DNA of 43,093 nucleotides from a virus, in the IMG/VR virus record IMGVR_UViG_3300045988_049952, positions 1 to 43,093 of that record. The stretch is one strand, 5' to 3'. The notes below the pieces were generated by a model that was not told where the DNA came from, searched no databases, and saw nothing but the letters and a program-made list of their open reading frames with translations. A program made the position numbers and the translations under genes. Below, piece by piece: positions 1 through 43,093 of the stretch; position 1 is the first letter of the stretch; the number at the start of each line of letters is the position of its first letter.

Positions 1-55
1 CTCGCGCCCTCGCGGCTGCTCAGGCGTTCGTTCTTCCCGGCTGCCGCCATGCGGG
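1..55. repeat. Terminal direct repeat identical to 43039-43093 (circular-contig overlap; unit genome about 43,038 bp)
   Basis: Exact 55-nt identity between the first and last bases of the window, seen directly. The length matches a k=55 assembler overlap. Confidence 0.9.
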
Positions 56-157
56 ATAAATAGTACCTGCTGGATGCAGTTGACGGGGCTACTTTGGTCA
101 TAGTCTGCTTCACCTCCTTGGAGTAGGCTATTCTTGAATGATCTACATCCTCACAAA

Positions 158-400
158 TTAAATACAGGTATTTCCGTCATTCTCCTTCAAAAAATTAAGG
201 TCAATGTTCAGAAGCACTGCAAGTCGCGAGAGCAGCTTAAGGCTGGGGGTGTACCGCCCCCGTTCTACGTCTGCATAATAAGCCCTAGACACACCAACAG
301 CATCAGCGATCTGGTACTGTGTCATTCCAGACCGATCTCGTGCTTCCTTAATGACGGCTTCAATTCTTCCCATCAATATCACCCCCTCGATTCCTTGCAT
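158..400 (-). CDS. Cro/CI-type XRE-family HTH transcriptional regulator (first gene of the minus-strand early operon)
   Basis: 80-aa ORF with HTH motif QYQIADAVGVSRAYYADVERG. Divergent from the plus-strand repressor. SD GAGGGGGTGA lies upstream of the ATG. Confidence 0.8.
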   Translation of the reverse strand: MQGIEGVILMGRIEAVIKEARDRSGMTQYQIADAVGVSRAYYADVERGRYTPSLKLLSRLAVLLNIDLNFLKENDGNTCI

Positions 401-515
401 TTCCGTCGTCTTTTTTAGACTACAGTATTTCCGTCATTTTGTCAATAGTATTTCCGTCAAAAATGTTATATAATCAAAAAAGACGGAATAACCGCACAGC
501 GAAAGGATCTTCTTT
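401..515. promoter_or_regulatory. Divergent early/lysogeny promoter-operator region with direct repeats of TATTTCCGTCA
   Basis: Copies at 427-437 and 448-458, plus a degenerate copy at 398-408 and one at 169-179 inside the 3' end of the cro-like ORF. A TGTTATATAAT extended -10-like element (about 464-474) lies upstream of the 516 ATG. AAAGGA RBS. Confidence 0.65.
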
Positions 516-956
516 ATGAGTATTGGAGCTAAAATCCGAGAGGCGCGAAAAGTGGCGGGATTAACACAGGTGGAGCTTGCTCAAAAAACAAGCTTGTCTC
601 GCTCCTACATCGGAGATATTGAAAAAGATCGGTACAATCCAAGCCTTTCAACACTGGATTTAATTGCAAAAGCGACCGGGGTAGCTTTATCTGCTTTGGT
701 AGATGGTGACGATGTAGCTACTCCTCCTGCTCCTCCTGCTTCACTTCCTCCACTCACACCAAAAGATGAGCGCCAAATCACACGTGATTTAGAAAACATG
801 GTCGATTCGCTCAACGGCGCTGCAGCGATGAGCGACGATCCGGAGGATGAAGAGGATCGCGAGATGTTGAGAGCTGCTCTTCTGCACGCCATGACACTTT
901 CAAAACGCATGGCAAAGAAAAAGTTCACGCCTAAAAAGTATCGTCACGAGGATTGA
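516..956 (+). CDS. XRE-family HTH repressor (CI/ImmR-like) with a Pro/Ala-rich linker and C-terminal domain
   Basis: N-terminal HTH LTQVELAQKTSLSRSYIGDIEKDR. Divergent from the cro-like gene and immediately followed by an ImmA-like protease. Confidence 0.8.
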   Translation: MSIGAKIREARKVAGLTQVELAQKTSLSRSYIGDIEKDRYNPSLSTLDLIAKATGVALSALVDGDDVATPPAPPASLPPLTPKDERQITRDLENMVDSLNGAAAMSDDPEDEEDREMLRAALLHAMTLSKRMAKKKFTPKKYRHED

Positions 957-959
957 ACC

Positions 960-1385
960 ATGAGTCCGCGACAGGTTGCTATAGGGATAGCGGAACGTTA
1001 CAACACAAACAATCCATTTGATATCGCTCGTGAGCGCAACATCGGGATCCTGTATGAGCCGATGAAAACGACCTACGGGTTTTATGTTCGGTATCGCAGA
1101 TTTCAAAATATCATCTTGGATAATGCACTCGAGGAGCTGCAGCGATTTGTCTGCGCTCACGAACTTGCGCACTCGATTCTGCATGCCGATCTCAACGTGC
1201 CAAAACTCACACGCTATACGCTCTTCTCGCGAGACAAGTTCGAGGTGCAGGCAAATACTTTTGCTGTTGAACTGCTCCTGCCGGATGAATTGCTTCGCGA
1301 GTATGAAGGCTGCTCAATCTATCAGCTGTCGGCATCGATTGGCGTTCCGCAGGAGTTTGTCGATCTCAAGCGAATAGATCGTTGA
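960..1385 (+). CDS. ImmA/IrrE-family zinc metallopeptidase (anti-repressor protease)
   Basis: HEXXH motif HELAHSILH. Sits directly downstream of the repressor, the typical ImmR-ImmA arrangement. Confidence 0.75.
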   Translation: MSPRQVAIGIAERYNTNNPFDIARERNIGILYEPMKTTYGFYVRYRRFQNIILDNALEELQRFVCAHELAHSILHADLNVPKLTRYTLFSRDKFEVQANTFAVELLLPDELLREYEGCSIYQLSASIGVPQEFVDLKRIDR

Positions 1386-1400
1386 TGCGGAGGATTTCTT

Positions 1401-2207
1401 ATGCACACAAAGAAAAAAGCCGTCGAATTCCTTCTCTTCGACGGCTCAATGGATGGAATTGTTCTCGCATCGCGGAAAGGCTCGAATACGAGGGCTCTGA
1501 AATTTCCGCGCGATCATCTGGCAGATGCTGCCGGAGATATCCAGCAATGCAACATCGGCGTGTACTTTCTCTTCTACGAGAGAGAGCTGCTGGGCGTGGA
1601 GACGCTATACATCGGCGAATCCTCCAACCTATACAACCGCCTGCTGAATCATGCGAAGAATAAGGAGGATTGGATCACGGCGGTCGCCTTCTGCTCCGCC
1701 GATCTGAACAAGTCCATTCTGCACTTCGCGGAGCATGCACTCTGCCAAACGATCACGAACAACGGGCACACGGTAAAGACGAAGCAGTCGAATCAGAACA
1801 TCATGATTAGTGCCGGTGACGCTTTATTCGCAGAGGAATTCATGGATGAGATCAGCCTCTTTCTCAGTGCGTTCGGCTATAATGCTCTGCGTACTGTGGA
1901 GAAGAAAGGGGAATCCTTTTTCTGCAAGGCAAAGGACGCCGATGCGACCGGCTTCAAATCAAACGAGGGGTTCACAGTACAGAAGGGATCTCGCATCGCT
2001 TCAACTGTCGCCCCTGCCTTCACGACTTCAAACTACGCCATCATCCGCGATGCGCTGGAGCAGGATGGCGTCATCAAGGGCGGTGTGTTCCAGCGTGACC
2101 ATGGATTTAGCTCACCGTCTGCCGCAGCGTCCGTCGTCCTTGGAAACAGCAGCAACGGACGCCTCCTATGGAAGACAGCGGGCGGCGTGAAGCTGGGAGA
2201 TTTGTAA
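1401..2207 (+). CDS. GIY-YIG nuclease domain protein with C-terminal DUF4357-like domain
   Basis: GIY-YIG motifs VYFLFY...LYIGES.NLYNRLLNH and a downstream HFAEH. The C-terminal region resembles DUF4357 (KGSRIAS...SPSAAASVVLGNSSNG...WK). GCGGAGGA RBS. Confidence 0.6.
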   Translation: MHTKKKAVEFLLFDGSMDGIVLASRKGSNTRALKFPRDHLADAAGDIQQCNIGVYFLFYERELLGVETLYIGESSNLYNRLLNHAKNKEDWITAVAFCSADLNKSILHFAEHALCQTITNNGHTVKTKQSNQNIMISAGDALFAEEFMDEISLFLSAFGYNALRTVEKKGESFFCKAKDADATGFKSNEGFTVQKGSRIASTVAPAFTTSNYAIIRDALEQDGVIKGGVFQRDHGFSSPSAAASVVLGNSSNGRLLWKTAGGVKLGDL

Positions 2208-2220
2208 GGAGGTTATTGCC

Positions 2221-2682
2221 ATGAAAAAGTTGTTTCTATCGTTCCTGTTGGCTGCCTTTTTATCGCTGTCCATGGTATCAACAGCTTCTGCATCGTGGAT
2301 ATGGGCTGGATCGGATGACAAGGTAGGTATATTTTTCAAGCCAGAAAGCATAGAATTCGAGCATAAGGGCACCTTAATCAACGGAGATGTCGTTTACGTA
2401 TGGTGGTATATGTTATACGACGATGCCTATGCTCAAAGCCATCCATTCATGGGAAGAACTCTGAAAAAGGTCGTTACCTACGACAAACTGAACCTTGAGA
2501 AAGCGATGAGCAAAAGTCTAGACATAATTGCCTACGACGAGAACGGAGACGTTATTTATCAGGGCTCGGATGAGACGGTACGTCGCATTATCCCTGGATC
2601 GCATCATGAAGTCCTGTTTAATGCGGTAGCAAAATATGTACACGAGCACTTCGAAGAAGTAAGTGATCGTACGGTGAAATAA
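2221..2682 (+). CDS. Secreted protein of unknown function (signal peptide MKKLFLSFLLAAFLSLSMVSTASA)
   Basis: N-terminal Sec signal with an ASA cleavage motif and a strong AAGGAGG RBS. No recognisable domain. Confidence 0.6.
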   Translation: MKKLFLSFLLAAFLSLSMVSTASASWIWAGSDDKVGIFFKPESIEFEHKGTLINGDVVYVWWYMLYDDAYAQSHPFMGRTLKKVVTYDKLNLEKAMSKSLDIIAYDENGDVIYQGSDETVRRIIPGSHHEVLFNAVAKYVHEHFEEVSDRTVK

Positions 2683-2683
2683 A

Positions 2684-3790
2684 ATGCTCAGCAAACGCAA
2701 AGATGGACGCTATCAGTCAAGTGTCATCCTTGAGAACCCGATCACGGGCGAGAAGGTGCGGCGTTATTTCTACGCCTACACGCTGCAGGAACTTGAGGCT
2801 GAGCGGCGGCGCATTATGAATGCGAATATCTCGGACTTTCTGCTGGTTGAGACGTTCCACCGTTTCGCCGACGAGTTCCTCGCCATGAAGCGCGACGTGG
2901 ATAAACTCGAGGCTTCGACGCTCTCCACCTATCAGGGCTTTCTCACACGACATATCCTTCCGCGGATCCCACCGACCATGAAGATCGCCGATGTAAAGCC
3001 CGCCCTGCTGAAGCATGTCCTTGCACAGATCGACGGTGATCGGACAAGACAGGCAGTCTATACGCTCCTTCACTCCATATTCAAGGCGGCAAAATTTGAA
3101 CAACTGGTCGAGAACAATCCGATGGAGTTCATCCGTAAACCCAAGCACAAGGCGACGGCTGCGGGCATTGTCACGCCGGAGATCTATCACGCTCTCCTTG
3201 ACGTGATCCGCGGATCACAGACCGAGCATCTCTTTAAGTTCGCATGGGATACAGGCCTGCGCCGGGGTGAGATTGTCGCGCTGCGCTGGTCGGATTTTGA
3301 CGCAAAAGCAGCGACGATCCGCGTCTCAAAGGCACGCAAACGTGCAGCCGATGAGTACGAGGGTACAACAAAGACGGCATACAGTGCCCGCACGGTCACG
3401 CTCTCCCCTGCTGCCGTGCAGAATCTCCTCGCATGGAGGAAGACGCTCACGGCGATCCTCCTGCGGCAGGGTGTCCCTCTCACAAAGGACAGCTATCTTT
3501 TCCGCTCTCTGCGTGACGAGACACAGCCAATCACGCTGACGGCGGTGACGCATCTCTTCGCCGACCTCAAACAGCGGCTGCAGCTCCCCGCGGATCTGCG
3601 CTTTCACTCGTTCCGCCATACCCACGCGACGCTCCTTGCAGAGCAGGAGATCAGCGCGAAGAAGATACAGGTGCGTCTCGGTCACGCATCAGCCTCCTTC
3701 ACAATGGATAGATATGTGCACAACACGGAGCAGATGCAGGAGGGCGTCACCGAAAAAGTAGTCAAGTGTGAAGAGAAATATGGCCGATAA
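2684..3790 (+). CDS. int: Tyrosine site-specific integrase
   Basis: C-terminal catalytic signature R...HSFRHTHATLL...LGHASASFTMDRYVH (R-H-R-Y). An N-terminal SAM-like domain is present. Confidence 0.9.
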   Translation: MLSKRKDGRYQSSVILENPITGEKVRRYFYAYTLQELEAERRRIMNANISDFLLVETFHRFADEFLAMKRDVDKLEASTLSTYQGFLTRHILPRIPPTMKIADVKPALLKHVLAQIDGDRTRQAVYTLLHSIFKAAKFEQLVENNPMEFIRKPKHKATAAGIVTPEIYHALLDVIRGSQTEHLFKFAWDTGLRRGEIVALRWSDFDAKAATIRVSKARKRAADEYEGTTKTAYSARTVTLSPAAVQNLLAWRKTLTAILLRQGVPLTKDSYLFRSLRDETQPITLTAVTHLFADLKQRLQLPADLRFHSFRHTHATLLAEQEISAKKIQVRLGHASASFTMDRYVHNTEQMQEGVTEKVVKCEEKYGR

Positions 3791-3795
3791 ACGCC

Positions 3796-3826
3796 ATGAT
3801 GTCAAAAATGATGTCAAAAATAAAAA
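3796..3826. repeat. Integrase arm-type direct repeats (ATGATGTCAAAAATGATGTCAAAAAT), P arm
   Basis: Tandem ATGATGTCAAAA units. A second copy set at 4038-4063 flanks the tRNA-derived core. Confidence 0.55.
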
Positions 3827-3837
3827 TAGAACAGAAA

Positions 3838-3875
3838 AGGCCTCCGAGGCAAAACCTCGGAGGCCTTGATTTTAC
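3838..3875 (+). terminator. Rho-independent terminator after int (GGCCTCCGAGG-CAAAA-CCTCGGAGGCC then TTGATTTT)
   Basis: Perfect 11-bp stem followed by a T-rich tract. Confidence 0.7.
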
Positions 3876-3933
3876 TGGCAGAGAGGGTGGGATTCGAACC
3901 CACGGTGGCTCATCACCACACTTGATTTCGAGT
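3876..3933 (-). other. attP core: 3' fragment (about 58 nt) of a tRNA-Ser(CGA)-like gene, not an intact tRNA
   Basis: The reverse complement reads ...CUCGAAA(anticodon loop, CGA)...long variable arm GTGG-TGATGAG-CCAC...GTGGGTTCGAATCCCAC-CCTCTCTG-CCA. No matching 5' half (AGAGAGG...) lies nearby. Confidence 0.75.
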
Positions 3934-4037
3934 TTGTTATTCGGATTTTTAAAACGCAGGTATTTTGTGCGGTTGCTGATATATAAAGGAAACAGCTTTT
4001 GCGTATGGCTCGATATAACATCATCTAATCACCGTAT

Positions 4038-4063
4038 ATGATGTCAAAATGATGTCAAACTCC
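4038..4063. repeat. Integrase arm-type direct repeats (ATGATGTCAAAATGATGTCAAAC), P' arm
   Basis: Second copy of the ATGATGTCAAA motif seen at 3796-3826. Confidence 0.55.
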
Positions 4064-4068
4064 ACCAC

Positions 4069-4114
4069 GAAAAAAAACAGAGGGAGCGGCGCACGATACG
4101 CTGTCCCCTCTGTT
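4069..4114 (-). terminator. Rho-independent terminator ending the late/lysis operon (stem ACAGAGGGA...TCCCTCTGT then T8 on the minus strand)
   Basis: Inverted repeat 4077-4114 adjacent to an A8/T8 run. Confidence 0.7.
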
Positions 4115-4139
4115 CACTTATTCAGTTCTCCTTATGCAG

Positions 4140-4427
4140 TTATGCCTTGACCGTCGGCGTCAGCGACTTGTCGAGCACGAGGTGCACAAGCCACACGCCG
4201 CCCTGCATCACCGCAGGGAGGACGACGGCATCGCGCCAGTAGCACCAGCCGTGCTCATCCTTCGCCTGCTCCTTGATCTGCGTCACGAACTTATCGACCG
4301 CCTGCTCGATGGCGGGGATGCACTCAGAGAGGATCGTGCGCGTCACGCGCTGCTTGACCTCCTCGGTCACCTGATCGACGTTGATCTCCTTAACGATTGT
4401 GTCTCTGATGTCTGTCCACTTACTCAT
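4140..4427 (-). CDS. Small protein with C-terminal hydrophobic segment (tail-anchored; possible lysis accessory)
   Basis: ORF with AAGGAGAATCTATC-ATG RBS at the MSKWTD start. C-terminus AVVLPAVMQGGVWLVHLVL. Last gene of the lysis cassette. Confidence 0.45.
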   Translation of the reverse strand: MSKWTDIRDTIVKEINVDQVTEEVKQRVTRTILSECIPAIEQAVDKFVTQIKEQAKDEHGWCYWRDAVVLPAVMQGGVWLVHLVLDKSLTPTVKA

Positions 4428-6129: not shown

Positions 6130-7026
6130 TTAAATGCCGATAGCGATATAGTCGACCGGGTAGATATCTGTGACCTCGCAAAAAATCTTGAAACCATGCA
6201 CGTCGATTTTCCGGGCTATCATACTGTCAGCCCTCGCGGCAGCGCCCATGGTATCCACCCCGTTACGCGATGCATTAAGAATGAATACAGCTGTCGGAAA
6301 AGCAATAGGATATGGTTCAACAATCCATTCCCTATTTCGGTTGATAATAGTCCCCCACTGCACAATTAACCCGTTGGCAAACTTGACCCATCCATTCTGC
6401 GCGAGGTTCCCTGCAACGATGCCCTGTTTCTCGATCTTGCCCTCAATCGCTTTAGCAAGCCCCTCTATAGAGTCCAGTCCGTTAAGTGCCGCGACCGCCT
6501 GTGCCACGAATGCCGTGCTTGCAATCTGATCGGTGCTCGTCCCCTTGCTCGCTGTCGGTACCGTCGGTGTGCCCGTGAGTGCAGGCGATGCGATTGGGGC
6601 TTTGTCGTCGACTACCCCGTCCTTCAGGTGCTCTTTTCCGATTGCTTTGTTGGCGATCTTTGCCCCTGTGACAGCCGCATCACGCAGTTTTGGCGTGGTG
6701 ACGCTCCCATCAGGATGATCGAGTTCGGCAGCGGTGCGGTGGGTGGTTATTCCTGCCGTGCCGCCGCTCTGAATGGCCTCCTCGAGGTTCCTTGTGATCC
6801 CCTCGACGTCACTGTCCATGCAGTCGCGCCCGCGATTAACGATCAGGTTAGCAATTGCCTTGCACATTGCCGACCATTGGTAGTACATCTTGTTGTGCAT
6901 CCGAGAGAGTGCCATGCCGGGAATAACCCCGCCGACGCGCTGCGTCGCCTCCTTGTACTCAGAGTCGTTGTACGTCCGCTCGGGCGTGTTTTCTTCGTTG
7001 AAAATCTGGAAGTTTGTTTTTGCCAT
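6130..7026 (-). CDS. Putative tail fiber / receptor-binding protein
   Basis: Position after the baseplate genes. Gly/Thr/Ala-rich central repeats and a C-terminal globular domain. Confidence 0.5.
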   Translation of the reverse strand: MAKTNFQIFNEENTPERTYNDSEYKEATQRVGGVIPGMALSRMHNKMYYQWSAMCKAIANLIVNRGRDCMDSDVEGITRNLEEAIQSGGTAGITTHRTAAELDHPDGSVTTPKLRDAAVTGAKIANKAIGKEHLKDGVVDDKAPIASPALTGTPTVPTASKGTSTDQIASTAFVAQAVAALNGLDSIEGLAKAIEGKIEKQGIVAGNLAQNGWVKFANGLIVQWGTIINRNREWIVEPYPIAFPTAVFILNASRNGVDTMGAAARADSMIARKIDVHGFKIFCEVTDIYPVDYIAIGI

Positions 7027-7040
7027 TATTCTGTTCCTCC

Positions 7041-7685
7041 TTACGTCCAGTAGCTGCCGTCGTATCCACTCATGCCGCCCGCAGGATCCTCGACATCGTA
7101 GGAAAAGGACACATCAGGCAGCGCGTTAGTCCAGTCAGCGTGATCGTATCCCTTGATCGTGTCTGTCTCGATGTCGTAGCCGAACACCGCACGATCAGCA
7201 AAATAATAATTAACGTGCACGCCCTGCGGCTTCGGGACGATCAATCCCTGCTGCACCATCTCTTTGGTGATCTGATCGTTGATGCCAATGGCGAGCACAT
7301 CGATGCTCATGTCTTGGTTATCCTGGATGATGATTCCTTTCCCAAAGAGCGCATTCCAGAGTTCTTTGATGTCGTAAATGCCGCCCTTCCACTGGTTCTT
7401 CGCGATCTTTGCCAACAGGAGTTTTCGATATGCGGCGTTGTCCAGTTCAGGAGAAATTCCTTTTCTCGGCTGGTACGGAAGCGTTCGCTCTGCCCCCACG
7501 AACTCGCCGAGAACATCCTCCTGCACACCTGTGGCATGGTCGATATCAAATTCATCATCCAGCTCGATCGCCAGCGCAAAAATATCATCCGACGGTGTAA
7601 GCAGTGCCGTAACTGTACGCATGAACTTCTCATGCACACGGTGCTGCGATGTCACGAGACCGAGGTATTCATCCATGAGTGCCAT
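7041..7685 (-). CDS. Baseplate/tail protein, DUF2313 (XkdU/YmfQ-like)
   Basis: Size and position after the baseplate J gene. Sequence features are consistent with the YmfQ family. Confidence 0.5.
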   Translation of the reverse strand: MALMDEYLGLVTSQHRVHEKFMRTVTALLTPSDDIFALAIELDDEFDIDHATGVQEDVLGEFVGAERTLPYQPRKGISPELDNAAYRKLLLAKIAKNQWKGGIYDIKELWNALFGKGIIIQDNQDMSIDVLAIGINDQITKEMVQQGLIVPKPQGVHVNYYFADRAVFGYDIETDTIKGYDHADWTNALPDVSFSYDVEDPAGGMSGYDGSYWT

Positions 7686-8851
7686 CAGACCACCTCCACC
7701 GTAACGGTTCCGCTCTTTGCTATGGCATTGTACGGGATATCTACATCAGCCACACCAAGTGCGCCATCTGTCCGTCCGATCTGCACGCTCTGCAAAGCAA
7801 AAGAGGGCTGCAGCGCGTCATCAACGGCGACAGCGATTGCGGTCAGAACCCCTGTCGTGGTAACATTTGCCCCTATGCCGAGGCGTCCTATGTACGACGC
7901 AATATTGCGCTTGATGTTCTCTTCCACCAGCGTCGTATACCCTGCGCACCTCCTTACTGTGACTTTCACAGCGATTTCCATGTATGTGGGGCGGAAGAAT
8001 CGAATTTCATTTTTCAGCCCGTCAGAATTGGTGTAGATCGTCGTTGTTGTCCCATGGGTCCCGCAACCCGGCCCTTTGCGCAGATAAATCTGCTCGGCGA
8101 CCGCCTCATCCAGTCCGCCCTCGACGACAGCGGCGATGCTGTGCCCTGGGACGCCGTTCTCATCGGCCTTGTTCGTGTCATTCTCGTACACTTTGTACCG
8201 CGATACTCCAGCGACGCTTCCAATGCCCGCGAGTGTACTGTTTACCATATTTTGGCTTGGAATTGCCACCGAAAATGCCTGACGGCGGCGCAGCTCCTCA
8301 TCTGTCTCGATGGGGCGTCCCTTTACGGCGGGCACCTTGTTTGTAACCGACAGCCACCCATATTGAGGGTTGCTGATCTTCGTGATCGTGCCGACAGGTG
8401 CTTCGACTGCGCCGATATCCTGGCACTGCGCCGTAATTTCGACGATTTCGCGGTCAAAATTGACGTTTTCGGGCAAATTCCACCGCTTTCCCTGCGTATC
8501 CTCGACAATTCCGGCGGCGATGGTCGTTCCCGGCACGCCTGTCAGCGTCAGAACGCAGGTGGAGTAGCTTGCTGTCTTGCGGCGCAGTCCGTTGAGCTTC
8601 ACACGCGAGGACAGCCCCGTCCCGACCGCTGTCTTGACGCTCTGGTTATTGTAGACGATCTGCAGGAGCTGTATTGTGTCGTATGTCTTGAGCGCAAACG
8701 CGGAGATCATCTGATAATCCTGAGAATCGTTGCCGAGGTAGAGGTCGTCCCCGTAGATTTTCTTAAAATCATCAACCAAATCATCTCGTATGTCGGCGTA
8801 GGTCGGGACGTGAAGCCCTGCGTCGTCAATGTACGGAGCGAAGTATGCCAT
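7685..8851 (-). CDS. Baseplate J-like protein (XkdT-like)
   Basis: 388 aa with baseplate_J-like N-terminus MAYFAPYIDDAGLHVPTYADIRDDL and conserved gene order. Confidence 0.7.
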   Translation of the reverse strand: MAYFAPYIDDAGLHVPTYADIRDDLVDDFKKIYGDDLYLGNDSQDYQMISAFALKTYDTIQLLQIVYNNQSVKTAVGTGLSSRVKLNGLRRKTASYSTCVLTLTGVPGTTIAAGIVEDTQGKRWNLPENVNFDREIVEITAQCQDIGAVEAPVGTITKISNPQYGWLSVTNKVPAVKGRPIETDEELRRRQAFSVAIPSQNMVNSTLAGIGSVAGVSRYKVYENDTNKADENGVPGHSIAAVVEGGLDEAVAEQIYLRKGPGCGTHGTTTTIYTNSDGLKNEIRFFRPTYMEIAVKVTVRRCAGYTTLVEENIKRNIASYIGRLGIGANVTTTGVLTAIAVAVDDALQPSFALQSVQIGRTDGALGVADVDIPYNAIAKSGTVTVEVV

Positions 8852-26626: not shown

Positions 26627-27164
26627 GAGCCTTTTTTAGAGACTGCACAAGCTGCACCATTGTAGATTGCTCCGGCTCTTCGAGTGCTGCGATGGGACTT
26701 CCCTTCGTCGCACCGGGTCTGCCGACATCCGCCGCCTCGAGGCGAGCCTGACGCTCGAGCTCGATGCCCTGTGCGAGGTAGTCGAGGATATTCTTCGCGG
26801 ACAGGCTCTCATCGTCCAGCCGCAGGAGTGCGGTCATCGCCTTCTTTTGTAGTGCCTGTGCCATCGTCATGTGGTCTTTGAGCATCTTGCGGACGGCTTC
26901 GCGCGTCTCCTCCATGCTGATGCGCTGCAGCTCGTTATCGTATGCCCGCGCCCGCTCTACCCAGTCCCATGTGAAGCTCCATCGCTCCATTAAAGCAAGG
27001 GATTTTCCTAACTTTTTCGCGACACTTGCCAGACGACGTTTCTTCTTCTCTCCGTCCGGCTCATGGCTCATGTTTCGGTAGAGCAGAAAGGCTTCGTACG
27101 CGACCGAAGATTCACCCGCCTGGCGTTCCCATGGTTCCTGCTCGTTCGATATCTTCCTGCTCAT
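26595..27164 (-). CDS. Putative terminase small subunit
   Basis: 189 aa immediately upstream of terL. Helical and basic. No strong motif. Confidence 0.4.
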   Translation of the reverse strand: MSRKISNEQEPWERQAGESSVAYEAFLLYRNMSHEPDGEKKKRRLASVAKKLGKSLALMERWSFTWDWVERARAYDNELQRISMEETREAVRKMLKDHMTMAQALQKKAMTALLRLDDESLSAKNILDYLAQGIELERQARLEAADVGRPGATKGSPIAALEEPEQSTMVQLVQSLKKARERRTRPNGV

Positions 27165-28684
27165 GCATCAACGTCACCTCCTGCGGCGGCCTCCATGACC
27201 TCATCGATTGTCATCGTCACGCCGTCCCGCTCTACGGTAACGGTCTGCTTACCGCTGGTCTCGATGTACCGACGGATGATGGCGTCAACGTAGCGCGGAT
27301 CAAGCTCCGTGCTGTAGCAGATGCGCCCGGTCATCTCCGCTGCGATCAGCGTCGAGCCGCTGCCGCCGAAGAAGTCAATCACGAGGTCGCCCGCCTCCGT
27401 GCTGTTGGTAATCGCACGAATCGGAAGCTCTACGGGCTTCTGCGTCGGGTGTACGGTCTTGCTCTCGCGTGAGACCTCCCCGACGGTATTCTCACGGCTC
27501 TCTTGATAAAGACAAATGCTGCGCCCCTCGCTCAACCTTACATAGCGCACCTTCTTGCCCTTTGGCATCTTGTCCGTGAGGTAGAGCTTGTTGCCCGTGC
27601 CATCCGTCAGAACCACACCGCCCGTGAGCGTTGTCGCCATGCCATCTGCACCGCGCAGGACGACGTTCCATGTCGTACGCTGCGCACGGTCGCCGCACCA
27701 TTTTGCCTGTTGCCCCGCTTTCTCGGCGTAGAAGCACGGCTCATGCGCCCACTGATAGTCAGCGTGCCCGAGGACGGGCGCGTTCTTGACCCAGATGATG
27801 TACTGCTTCTCCATGATGCCCGCTGCAATCATGGCGTCCTCGAAGTCGCGGCGCGTACTCGATGCATGCCAGATATAGAAAGCTGCATCATCAACCGTGC
27901 TGCGCATGTAGTTTTTGAATGCCGGGATGAGCAGCTCTGTCATCAGATCGTCGTGCGTCTTGTCGTCGTTGGCGATCATGTCAAACCTTCCGCTCTGCGT
28001 CTTGTAGCTAACGCCATACGGCGGGTCTGTGTGTACGAGCTGCGCCTTGTGCCCGTCCATCAGTCGATCGATCGTCGCCGTATCTGTTGCGCTACCGCAG
28101 ACGAGGCGATGATTCCCGAGGTGCCACAGGTCCCCGAGCTGGGAGAACGGCTTGTAGTCATCATCTACCCCCGGCTCTGCGTCTGCCTTATCGTCAACGG
28201 AATCATCCGCGCCCTCCATCGAGGCGATGATCTTCTGCAGGTCTTCCTCCGTGAATCCGGTCAGCTCCACAGGTACGATGCCCGTATCCATCTCCTCTAC
28301 CATGTCCATCAGCTTACCCATATCGAGGTCGGCGAGCTCTGCGATGCGGTTGTCTGCGATGAGGTCAGCGTGCTCCTCCTCCTCGCTCGCGTAGTCTTGA
28401 TACTCCACGGGAGCGGACTTCCACCCCTTTGCCTCTGCCGCCATCCTGCGTCCGTGCCCTTTCGTAATAAGCCCGCTGCGCTTGCTGACGGTGATCGGTG
28501 CGCGCCATCCTGTCGCTTGGATGATGTCGCCGAGCAGACGCACCTGCTTCTTGTTGTGGCTGTTCGGGTTGCCGGGATTCGGTCGAATATCCCTAATCGC
28601 AGCGATTTCATCATACGCACAGAACACCGGCACGCCGTCAGCAGTCGTGCCGCGTGGCTCTGCGGGTGACTTGTAGTCGATCAA
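27161..28684 (-). CDS. ParB-like N-terminal domain fused to a DNA methyltransferase (N6-adenine/N4-cytosine, beta class)
   Basis: ParB-N-like N-terminus. MTase motif IV DPPY (LVHTDPPYGV) and C-terminal motif I FFGGSGST. GAGGAGG RBS. Confidence 0.75.
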   Translation of the reverse strand: MIDYKSPAEPRGTTADGVPVFCAYDEIAAIRDIRPNPGNPNSHNKKQVRLLGDIIQATGWRAPITVSKRSGLITKGHGRRMAAEAKGWKSAPVEYQDYASEEEEHADLIADNRIAELADLDMGKLMDMVEEMDTGIVPVELTGFTEEDLQKIIASMEGADDSVDDKADAEPGVDDDYKPFSQLGDLWHLGNHRLVCGSATDTATIDRLMDGHKAQLVHTDPPYGVSYKTQSGRFDMIANDDKTHDDLMTELLIPAFKNYMRSTVDDAAFYIWHASSTRRDFEDAMIAAGIMEKQYIIWVKNAPVLGHADYQWAHEPCFYAEKAGQQAKWCGDRAQRTTWNVVLRGADGMATTLTGGVVLTDGTGNKLYLTDKMPKGKKVRYVRLSEGRSICLYQESRENTVGEVSRESKTVHPTQKPVELPIRAITNSTEAGDLVIDFFGGSGSTLIAAEMTGRICYSTELDPRYVDAIIRRYIETSGKQTVTVERDGVTMTIDEVMEAAAGGDVDA

Positions 28685-30646: not shown

Positions 30647-31116
30647 TTGGAGCCCTCCTCCGGAAATTTCATAAACACCATCCAGATTGTCTTACCCCTC
30701 CGGTTTCCGAACAGCGGCTGCACTGGAAGTAGTTTCAGAACATCTGCTGTGCTGATCTGATCTTCCGACCATTTGAAGATCAACACACCGTAATCTTTCA
30801 GGACGCGCATGCACTCCTCGAATCCTCGGCGCAGATCATCCTGCCATGTGCTTTCGAGCACACCGTACTTGATGCCGAGCCATGAACTCTTTCCAGCTCT
30901 GCACAGGTGCGGCGGGTCAAATACGACAAGACGGAAACTCTCGTCGGGAAATGGAATCTCTCGGAAGTCCGCGATCAGATCGGGCTTGACCTCGAACCGT
31001 CGGCCATCACACAACGTTTTGGCAAAGCTGCGATTGTCCATGAACACGGTTGCAGGATGCTCCTTGTCAAACCAGAACATTCGAGAGCCGCAGCATGCGT
31101 CAAGTATTTGTTTCAT
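30643..31116 (-). CDS. Small SAM-dependent methyltransferase (putative DNA MTase, DPPH motif)
   Basis: 157 aa with motif VVFDPPHL and an upstream MFWFDK nucleotide-binding-like segment. Confidence 0.5.
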   Translation of the reverse strand: MKQILDACCGSRMFWFDKEHPATVFMDNRSFAKTLCDGRRFEVKPDLIADFREIPFPDESFRLVVFDPPHLCRAGKSSWLGIKYGVLESTWQDDLRRGFEECMRVLKDYGVLIFKWSEDQISTADVLKLLPVQPLFGNRRGKTIWMVFMKFPEEGSK

Positions 31117-32086
31117 TGCTCACCTCCACAATCCTACGTATCACATAATCCGCGCACGGCTGCGCCATCCCATTACCTAACGCCTTATAACGCGCCGTAT
31201 CGCTCCCGCCCTCGGTGTATCCGTCAGGCAGTCCCTGCAAGCGTTCGCACTCGGTCAGCGCAAGTCTGCGCACCTTTCCTTCCGTGAGTACGACGGGGAC
31301 TTGATTCCCGCCTGTTCCCATGCGTGCGTTGAGTGTCTGGATAATGCCGTCTTTGACGGGACGCATGACTTCATCCGCATGTGTCATGTCGTAGACTGCA
31401 ATTCGAGCGCAATTCTCAGCTCCTCCGGCAGCTTCTTCCCGCGCTCCCTTGCTCTCCGCAGAATTCCAAGGCACGCCCTCTGACTCAAATAGTATTTCTC
31501 CTGCACATCTTGCATCGGCTGCAAAATCTGCGACAAGGAAGATTCGACGGCGGCGTTGGGGCACTCCCCAATATTGTGCGTCCAATACCCTCCATGCGAT
31601 TTCAGCTCCGGGGAATTGCACCAATCCAGCGGGAGCCCATCGATTACCTTGAGGCATTGGAATTTCACTTTCTCCGATTTCTTCGAGCACGGCTTGAAAA
31701 TCCATCCCGCGGTTGGATGAAAAAGCACCGGAGACGTTCTCCCACACAAAGAATCTCGGATACTCTCCTGCGCTGCACTCTCGCATCCGTCGAACAATGT
31801 TAATTGCTGTTCGGAATAAGCCACTGCGTTCACCACATAGCCCCTTTCTTTTTCCTGCGATGGATAAGTCCTGACACGGACTGCCCGCGCAGATGATGTC
31901 AACAGGCTCGATCTTATCAGGGTCAATCTTCGTGATGTCACCGAGCTGCTGCACGTCAGGAAAATGCCGCGCGGTCACCGAGCACGGGAACGGCTCGATC
32001 TCGCTTGCCCATACAGGCGTAACCCCCGCATGACGCGCCGCCAGTAACCACCCTCCGATTCCGTCAAACAAGCTGCCGAGCGTCAT
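31100..32086 (-). CDS. dcm: DNA (cytosine-5)-methyltransferase
   Basis: Motif I LFDGIGG, motif IV GSPCQDLS, motif VI ENV and motif VIII QRRRR. Confidence 0.85.
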   Translation of the reverse strand: MTLGSLFDGIGGWLLAARHAGVTPVWASEIEPFPCSVTARHFPDVQQLGDITKIDPDKIEPVDIICAGSPCQDLSIAGKRKGLCGERSGLFRTAINIVRRMRECSAGEYPRFFVWENVSGAFSSNRGMDFQAVLEEIGESEIPMPQGNRWAPAGLVQFPGAEIAWRVLDAQYWGVPQRRRRIFLVADFAADARCAGEILFESEGVPWNSAESKGAREEAAGGAENCARIAVYDMTHADEVMRPVKDGIIQTLNARMGTGGNQVPVVLTEGKVRRLALTECERLQGLPDGYTEGGSDTARYKALGNGMAQPCADYVIRRIVEVSNETNT

Positions 32087-42662: not shown

Positions 42663-43093
42663 TTACCTGCGTTTGTCGAGATAAATCTGAATCTCAAGTG
42701 CTACTGTGGCGATCCGCTGGATGCCGATCAACAGATGCTCCATCTGCGGTACTTCGTCTGCCGTGAGCATCCCATCCCGCGCAATCTGCAGAAGCTCCTT
42801 GTCGGAATCCCTGATTGCATCGAGCGCGTTCATGAACTTCACCGTGATGCGGTCAAGCTCGTTCAGCTCTGCCTGCGGAACGGTGCGCTGCCCGATGGGA
42901 CAGCATTGCGAGCAGTGGTAGTTCAGGAGCTCCGGCGCGTGGTAGGTATCTGCCATCAGCAGAACCTCCTCGGGGTACGGGTTCAGCGTCCCGATCTCGA
43001 TGCGCTGCATCCGCTTGCGGTCGATGCCCGTCTCCTCGCTCGCGCCCTCGCGGCTGCTCAGGCGTTCGTTCTTCCCGGCTGCCGCCATGCGGG
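42663..43093 (-). CDS. XRE-like HTH protein with Cys-containing C-terminal domain. The ORF continues across the circular junction to a stronger start at window positions 99-101.
   Basis: HTH-like ...ASEETGIDRKRMQRIEIGTLNPYPEEVLLMADTY. Reading through the junction gives GGAGGTG 9 nt upstream of ATG(99-101) (MTKVAPSTASSRYYLSRMAAAG...). Confidence 0.45.
   Translation of the reverse strand, partial: RMAAAGKNERLSSREGASEETGIDRKRMQRIEIGTLNPYPEEVLLMADTYHAPELLNYHCSQCCPIGQRTVPQAELNELDRITVKFMNALDAIRDSDKELLQIARDGMLTADEVPQMEHLLIGIQRIATVALEIQIYLDKRR

Follow-up and report, generated by a model that had tools for sequence, protein, structure and literature searches.

We describe two genes, carried between the repressor–protease pair and the integrase of a temperate phage, which we read as two independent cargo genes expressed in the lysogen, one encoding a restriction-like nuclease and the other an envelope factor; we hold this reading with somewhat better than even confidence. 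The phage is IMG/VR record IMGVR_UViG_3300045988_049952, whose 43,093 nucleotides (nt) constitute the window analyzed here. Judged from its sequence, the nuclease adds a new member, this one carried by a phage, to PDC-S14, a catalogued candidate family, and the second protein has the fold of Protein E. The data show the layout of the genes, their domains, folds and catalytic residues, the purifying selection on them, their genomic contexts and the fact that they are separable; lysogen expression, nuclease activity, target discrimination and a protective phenotype are what we infer from these data. The finding is a well-supported annotation rather than a new mechanism, with nothing mechanistically surprising in it. 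The two genes, with lengths in amino acids (aa), are:

1401–2207, + strand: 268-aa cytoplasmic nuclease, PADLOC candidate family PDC-S14
2221–2682, + strand: 153-aa exported (predicted periplasmic) protein, Protein E / Adhesin_E fold

A first-pass annotation had reported the same two + strand open reading frames (ORFs), with gaps of 15 nt between immA and the nuclease gene, 13 nt between the nuclease and exported-protein genes and 1 nt before int, and all of these values proved exact. The observation itself therefore stands, and its interpretation does so in part: the placement of both genes as cargo, the variability of the slot and the defence contexts were borne out, whereas the absence of a named system, the absence of a recognisable domain and the implied partnership of the two genes were not.

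The nuclease had been described as belonging to no named defense system. In PADLOC, it matches the PDC-S14 hidden Markov model (HMM) PDLC04925 over its full length (E = 1.3e-59; residues 1–267 against profile positions 13–293 of 301), and four more PDC-S14 models match it as well, making it a listed candidate. The PDC set was assembled by 'guilt by embedding' in BREX, DISARM and type I restriction–modification (R–M) operons (Payne et al, 2024, preprint). The window nuclease resembles PDC-S14 in size and domain order, and its distant homologues lie in or beside type I R–M operons, as in the PDC definition; it differs in being encoded in a temperate-phage immR–immA–int operon rather than a chromosomal R–M operon.

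The nuclease comprises an N-terminal β sub-domain (residues 1–45), a GIY-YIG catalytic domain (approximately residues 50–160) and a RAMA-like/DUF4357 domain predicted to bind double-stranded DNA (approximately residues 170–268), with no transmembrane segment. The first-pass assignment to GIY-YIG plus DUF4357 was reproduced by the Pfam HMMs for DUF4357 (PF14267; residues 216–265, E = 4e-15, 55.9 bits, cut-off 38.4). Two sub-threshold scores count against this domain reading: GIY-YIG (PF01541) reaches 19.7 vs 22.6 bits (E = 1.1e-3) over residues 53–95 only, and RAMA (PF18755) reaches 15.4 bits in the nuclease itself against a cut-off of 35.2. The GIY-YIG assignment is nevertheless supported by the fold and by the catalytic residues. 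In an alignment of 25 relatives with identities as low as 25%, G53-V-Y55, Y70-I-G72, R80 and E111 show no variation and H84 almost none, and G53, Y55, Y70, G72, R80, E111 and H84 make up the GIY-YIG catalytic set; the same alignment shows an FSSPSAAA...NG...W motif kept in the C-terminal domain. The AlphaFold model is confident (predicted local distance difference test score, pLDDT, 89.6) and displays the GIY-YIG α/β fold, while its C-terminal domain matches the fold of both solved RAMA domains, those of MPND and CcrM. Moreover, the C-terminal domains of 10 of 14 relatives match Pfam RAMA (E < 10, best 3e-5), indicating that this DUF4357 domain is RAMA-like. Neither the nuclease family nor its C-terminal domain gave a meaningful match when used as a profile against PDB sequences, and NCBIfam yielded nothing usable. 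Matches of the C-terminal domain to designed 'Bagel' propeller proteins were discarded as spurious, as they rest on a short NGxLxWK repeat.

The exported protein had been considered to lack any recognisable domain; we found the Protein E / Adhesin_E fold in it with high confidence. The Pfam model Adhesin_E (PF16747) is sub-threshold for the protein itself (19.5 vs 23.7 bits) and is matched by 16 of 37 relatives, with a best E-value of 1.8e-8. In the sequence and the model, residues 1–24 are signal-peptide-like (MKK, a hydrophobic helix spanning residues 2–22, then ASA↓SW), a feature conserved in relatives, in most of which this segment ends in ...A↓ANW. No lipobox cysteine is present, the signal peptide ending in ...STASA↓SW. 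The gene has a GC content of 43.5%, compared with 55.9% for the genome. PADLOC holds no model for the protein, and a PDB-sequence profile search with its family gave no meaningful match. Five divergence levels were sampled (the window and four more), and at each of them the family lies in a repressor-side lysogeny operon, with an integrase visible downstream at four; the locus L050 is a 1.2-kb contig showing only the upstream helix-turn-helix (HTH) gene. PHROGs placed the nuclease and the exported protein only in families with no assigned function, phrog_12629 and phrog_32801, the phrog_32801 match covering residues 1–47 only. Both genes have dozens of homologues and a ratio of nonsynonymous to synonymous substitution rates (dN/dS) of 0.08–0.14, which indicates that both are real genes under purifying selection rather than chance ORFs.

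The first-pass annotation had implied that the two genes are partners, and they do co-occur outside this phage, being found together in loci L001–4, L008–12 and L029–31 as well as in the window. Each also occurs without the other. In L005–7 and L022 the nuclease gene is followed directly by int (the L022 nuclease is 88–89% identical), and in L023–28 and L047–50 the exported-protein gene occurs without the nuclease: behind an unrelated protein in L023–26, after a 76-aa ORF and before int in L027–28, directly after immA or the repressor gene in L047–49, and after an HTH gene in L050. Where both are present, their identities to the window are discordant (88% for the nuclease vs 69% for the exported protein in L029, 74% vs 51% in L030 and 60% vs 81% in L031), pointing to independent shuffling. 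A two-gene system, in which the nuclease is the effector and the exported protein its sensor or anchor, would fit the adjacency of the genes across a 13-nt gap and their co-occurrence, which extends to serine-recombinase elements. Besides the separate occurrences and discordant divergence, this model is opposed by the distant nuclease homologues, none of which has the exported-protein gene as a neighbour, and by localization: with the nuclease cytoplasmic and the other protein predicted to be exported and soluble, direct contact is unlikely. We consider such a pair highly improbable; on their distribution and divergence, the nuclease and exported-protein genes appear as two independent, separable cargo genes and not as a two-component system.

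The variability of the slot in related prophages is evident among these loci. Close nuclease relatives (57–96% identity) always show the order immR–immA–X–(Y)–int, the recombinase being of either the tyrosine or the serine type. In L008–L010 (L008, approximately 6464–7909), the block immR–immA–nuclease–exported protein is joined to a serine recombinase, again across a 1-nt gap; it is the immunity region, and not the integrase, that the cargo accompanies. In L023–26 the nuclease slot holds the unrelated 213–215-aa protein mentioned above (L023 5305–5952, L024 5303–5944, L025 210–857, L026 5305–5952), which has no Pfam or PADLOC match and represents a further lysogeny-operon cargo gene. We rejected the 215-aa protein as a diverged nuclease homologue (hhalign probability 0.7%).

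Distant nuclease relatives (23–38% identity) stand alone in defence contexts. One lies between hsdM and hsdS, in the order hsdR–hsdM–X–hsdS (L041), and another adjoins a type I R–M operon (L013); others adjoin MazEF (L015), type ISP-like ResIII–Eco57I enzymes (L037 and L043) or a reverse-transcriptase protein (L033), or lie near GmrSD (L017 and L020). These surroundings fit a defence role and count against a selfish, free-standing homing endonuclease of the Seg/I-TevI type, which would spread the immunity-region cassette among related phages without any host defence. Such an element would be expected in conserved phage genes, introns or inteins; we found no intron or intein context for the nuclease gene, and its family extends across bacterial chromosomes in R–M operons and defence islets. 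Its DNA-binding domain is RAMA/DUF4357, common to GmrSD and McrB fusions, and not a NUMOD or IENR module, and purifying selection has been strong over deep divergence. The homing behaviour that the first-pass annotation had allowed for thus finds no match in the gene's context, and we give it very little probability. A separate observation concerns L051 (3786–4660; Clostridium phage CWou-2020b, CP063968.1), where the nuclease homologue is annotated as a frameshifted GIY-YIG pseudogene with an IS3 transposase, a large HNH endonuclease gene and an HTH/ImmA pair as neighbours.

The neighbouring features that define the operon of the two cargo genes are:

158–400, − strand: Cro-like HTH regulator, divergent from the lysogeny operon (Pfam HTH_3, E = 1.4e-16)
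399–488, no strand: switch region with operator-like repeats of TATTTCCGTCA
516–956, + strand: ImmR-like HTH repressor, operon gene 1 (Pfam HTH_3, 4.6e-15; PHROG transcriptional repressor; PADLOC capH-like, 1e-15)
960–1385, + strand: ImmA/IrrE-type metalloprotease, anti-repressor (Pfam Peptidase_M78, 2.1e-17; phrog_87 metallo-protease; HExxH motif, AHELAH)
2684–3790, + strand: tyrosine integrase, the operon's last gene (Pfam Phage_integrase, 3.3e-25)
3837–3867, both strands: bidirectional GC-rich hairpin with a 13–14 bp stem, predicted operon terminator

No + strand terminator was predicted between 516 and 3790, consistent with the earlier placement of both genes as cargo in the lysogeny operon, and the hairpin at 3837–3867 is the only + strand terminator-like site in positions 1–4200. 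GGAGG-type ribosome-binding sites precede both the nuclease and the exported-protein genes. Exact copies of TATTTCCGTCA lie at 426–436 and 449–459, with a third at 169–179 within the cro-like gene, a variant at 399–412 and an inverted copy at 477–488; allowing at most one mismatch, the window contains five matches vs 0.63 expected by chance, and the repeats are probably repressor operators. A sigma-70 scan for the operon promoter gave no convincing candidate; by eye, a TATAAT is visible at 469–474, with no good −35 element. Close spacing, the lack of an internal terminator and the operator-like repeats together describe the layout of a single lysogeny operon. All other long ORFs fitting a non-overlapping gene set are on the − strand, leaving immR–immA–nuclease–exported protein–int as the window's only + strand transcription unit. 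From the gene layout, and by analogy with ImmR/ImmA elements, the operon is predicted to be transcribed in the lysogen.

The window represents a complete phage genome of approximately 43 kb and 55.9% GC. Its first 55 nt are repeated exactly at its end (1–55 = 43039–43093), an overlap indicating a circular assembly. The phage is temperate and its host is Selenomonas-like, that is, a diderm Firmicute: the closest genome locus belongs to an uncultured Selenomonas metagenome-assembled genome (L022), and related loci come from human-associated metagenomes. A DNA search of a phage collection with positions 1–4100 as query gave no match. Three further features bear on integration and DNA modification:

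3877–3933, − strand: attP core, identical to the 3′ ~57 nt of tRNA-Ser(CGA) by alignment with integrated relatives
27161–28684, − strand: N6_N4_Mtase with DPPY motif (E = 1.5e-24)
31100–32086, − strand: C5 cytosine methylase (E = 1.6e-45)

The attP core was assigned from its identity to the tRNA-Ser gene that is kept whole beside int in integrated relatives (L022 6962–7050 and L005 2863–2951), and the alignment indicates that the phage integrates into tRNA-Ser and restores the tRNA gene. The − strand genes include terminase, RecT, DnaC-like, HNH and lysis genes in addition to the two DNA methyltransferases. Across the whole window, the palindromic tetranucleotides GGCC, CTAG and CCGG are avoided (observed/expected 0.25, 0.41 and 0.57, respectively), whereas GATC is not (0.84, 268 sites); the avoidance of GGCC and CCGG suggests pressure from host restriction of the GGCC and CCGG type.

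With regard to mechanism, the nuclease would most likely be a soluble GIY-YIG endonuclease whose RAMA-like/DUF4357 domain holds double-stranded DNA while the GIY-YIG domain cuts it, and it would act alone, in a restriction-like manner, on incoming foreign DNA. Most likely, self and non-self would be told apart by the modification state of the DNA, as in type IV restriction enzymes. We base this on the operon, which encodes no cognate methyltransferase (the phage methylases are on the other strand, approximately 25 kb away), and on the occurrence of DUF4357/RAMA in fusions with the type IV enzymes GmrSD and McrB. DUF4357 has been found fused to GmrSD, GIY-YIG and T5orf172 nucleases (PMC4619093, PMC5714182) and is among the domain labels matched by McrB homologues (PMC11090510), and uncharacterised GIY-YIG–RAMA fusions have been proposed as possible type IV enzymes dependent on N6-methyladenine (6mA) (PMC11037411). 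Like type IV enzymes, both the 6mA-dependent winged-helix (wH) fusions and GmrSD and McrB with DUF4357, the window nuclease is a single polypeptide combining a nuclease with a DNA-reader-type domain and lacking a methylase partner, and it has the DUF4357/RAMA domain in common with its GmrSD and McrB counterparts; unlike them, its catalytic domain is GIY-YIG rather than HNH or PD-(D/E)xK plus an NTPase. These domain associations suggest that the nuclease may cleave modified DNA only. In contrast to the RAMA domains of CcrM and MPND, the window region is filed by Pfam as DUF4357, and its fusion partner is a nuclease instead of a methylase or deubiquitinase. A further comparison is SNIPE (PD-lambda-1), a membrane-anchored DUF4041 plus GIY-YIG protein that cleaves injected phage DNA and needs its catalytic Glu: it is likewise a single protein with a GIY-YIG-type nuclease, but the window nuclease has no transmembrane segment or DUF4041, carries another accessory domain, and is not matched by the PADLOC PD-Lambda-1 models.

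Several points argue against a restriction-like, modification-sensing nuclease. PDC-S14 is a candidate family only, one among 145 PDC candidates, and in one survey it was not enriched in phage-resistant P. aeruginosa strains. The RAMA domains of CcrM and MPND touch the DNA backbone with no sequence specificity, and a 6mA preference of the MPND domain could not be confirmed. In addition, a nuclease with a broad attack on methylated DNA would be difficult to reconcile with the N6/N4 and C5 methylases that the phage itself encodes. Given these methylases and the unconfirmed 6mA preference, the modification-dependent step of our reading is weak.

The main rival reading takes the nuclease for a DNase of the abortive-infection or toxin type that is inactive or low in the lysogen. 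Infection or DNA damage would release it to act without specificity, for example through cleavage of ImmR by ImmA and de-repression of the operon, as CapH/CapP do for CBASS. The solved RAMA domains, which bind DNA with neither sequence nor 6mA specificity, speak for it, as do the matches of ImmR and ImmA to the PADLOC capH (1e-15) and capP (7e-16) models and the lack of any methylase or immunity partner in the operon. However, ImmR/ImmA is clearly the phage's own switch, with its divergent cro-like gene and operator-like repeats, and the distant homologues stand alone in R–M operons with no regulator pair. We regard the abortive DNase as unlikely and retain the restriction-like nuclease as the preferred reading.

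For the exported protein, the diderm host implies that a soluble exported product would reach the periplasm. We propose that the protein, which has the Protein E fold, would be exported by the Sec route and act, most likely, in the periplasm or envelope. There it would most likely mask a receptor or block entry as a superinfection-exclusion factor, or else serve as a lysogenic-conversion factor in the manner of Bor or Lom. Exclusion genes classically lie in the repressor-side lysogeny operon, and two superinfection-exclusion genes situated between repressor and integrase are Ltp of S. thermophilus TP-J34 and Sie2009 of lactococcal P335 phages. The exported-protein gene occupies the same genomic position, with co-transcription with the repressor predicted from the layout, and its product appears envelope-targeted, as would be expected of an exclusion protein. 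On the other hand, Ltp and Sie2009 come from monoderm hosts, in which they are lipoproteins or membrane proteins, and no sequence or fold relationship to the exported protein was detected. Two points tell against exclusion: we found no homology to any characterised exclusion protein, and the best-characterised structural relative is an adhesin.

That relative underlies the alternative that the protein is a host lysogenic-conversion factor comparable to Haemophilus Protein E or lambda Lom/Bor, with a role in adhesion, in resistance to serum or complement, or in binding to the host matrix. In keeping with such a role, the protein shares its fold and its Pfam family with the H. influenzae adhesin Protein E, the host lineage is human-associated Selenomonas, and the low GC content is typical of a moron. 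As a lipoprotein, Protein E is placed on the surface by a lipid anchor, which the window protein, lacking a lipobox cysteine, does not have. The window protein is only 15% identical to H. influenzae Protein E (Adhesin_E, PDB 3ZH5) and, unlike it, is phage-encoded in the lysogeny operon of a diderm Firmicute phage. Its family is tied to the repressor-side operon in every sampled lineage, and Protein E-like proteins occur in a lytic Acinetobacter phage as well. The fixed repressor-operon position thus favours superinfection exclusion and the fold favours an adhesin-like conversion role; we place exclusion, roughly, a little above even and conversion as a tentative alternative of appreciable but clearly lower probability.

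A bolder proposal, which we consider rather doubtful, is that Protein E-fold proteins form a new periplasmic superinfection-exclusion family in the repressor operons of diderm-Firmicute prophages, and that the nuclease is a modification-sensing (e.g., 6mA-dependent) type IV enzyme, the two providing a two-layer barrier, envelope and cytoplasm, against competing phages. If the nuclease does protect lysogens, the phage would provide a compact, naturally occurring system in which to test PDC-S14 and the GIY-YIG–RAMA architecture, and would bear on whether RAMA domains, which are also present in eukaryotic MPND, are sensors of DNA modification. A better and fresher lead may be the exported-protein family, which follows the phage repressor in all sampled lineages and has a high-confidence fold and no assigned phage function. 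It comes from under-studied human-associated bacteria and may represent a new family of envelope factors in diderm-Firmicute prophages.
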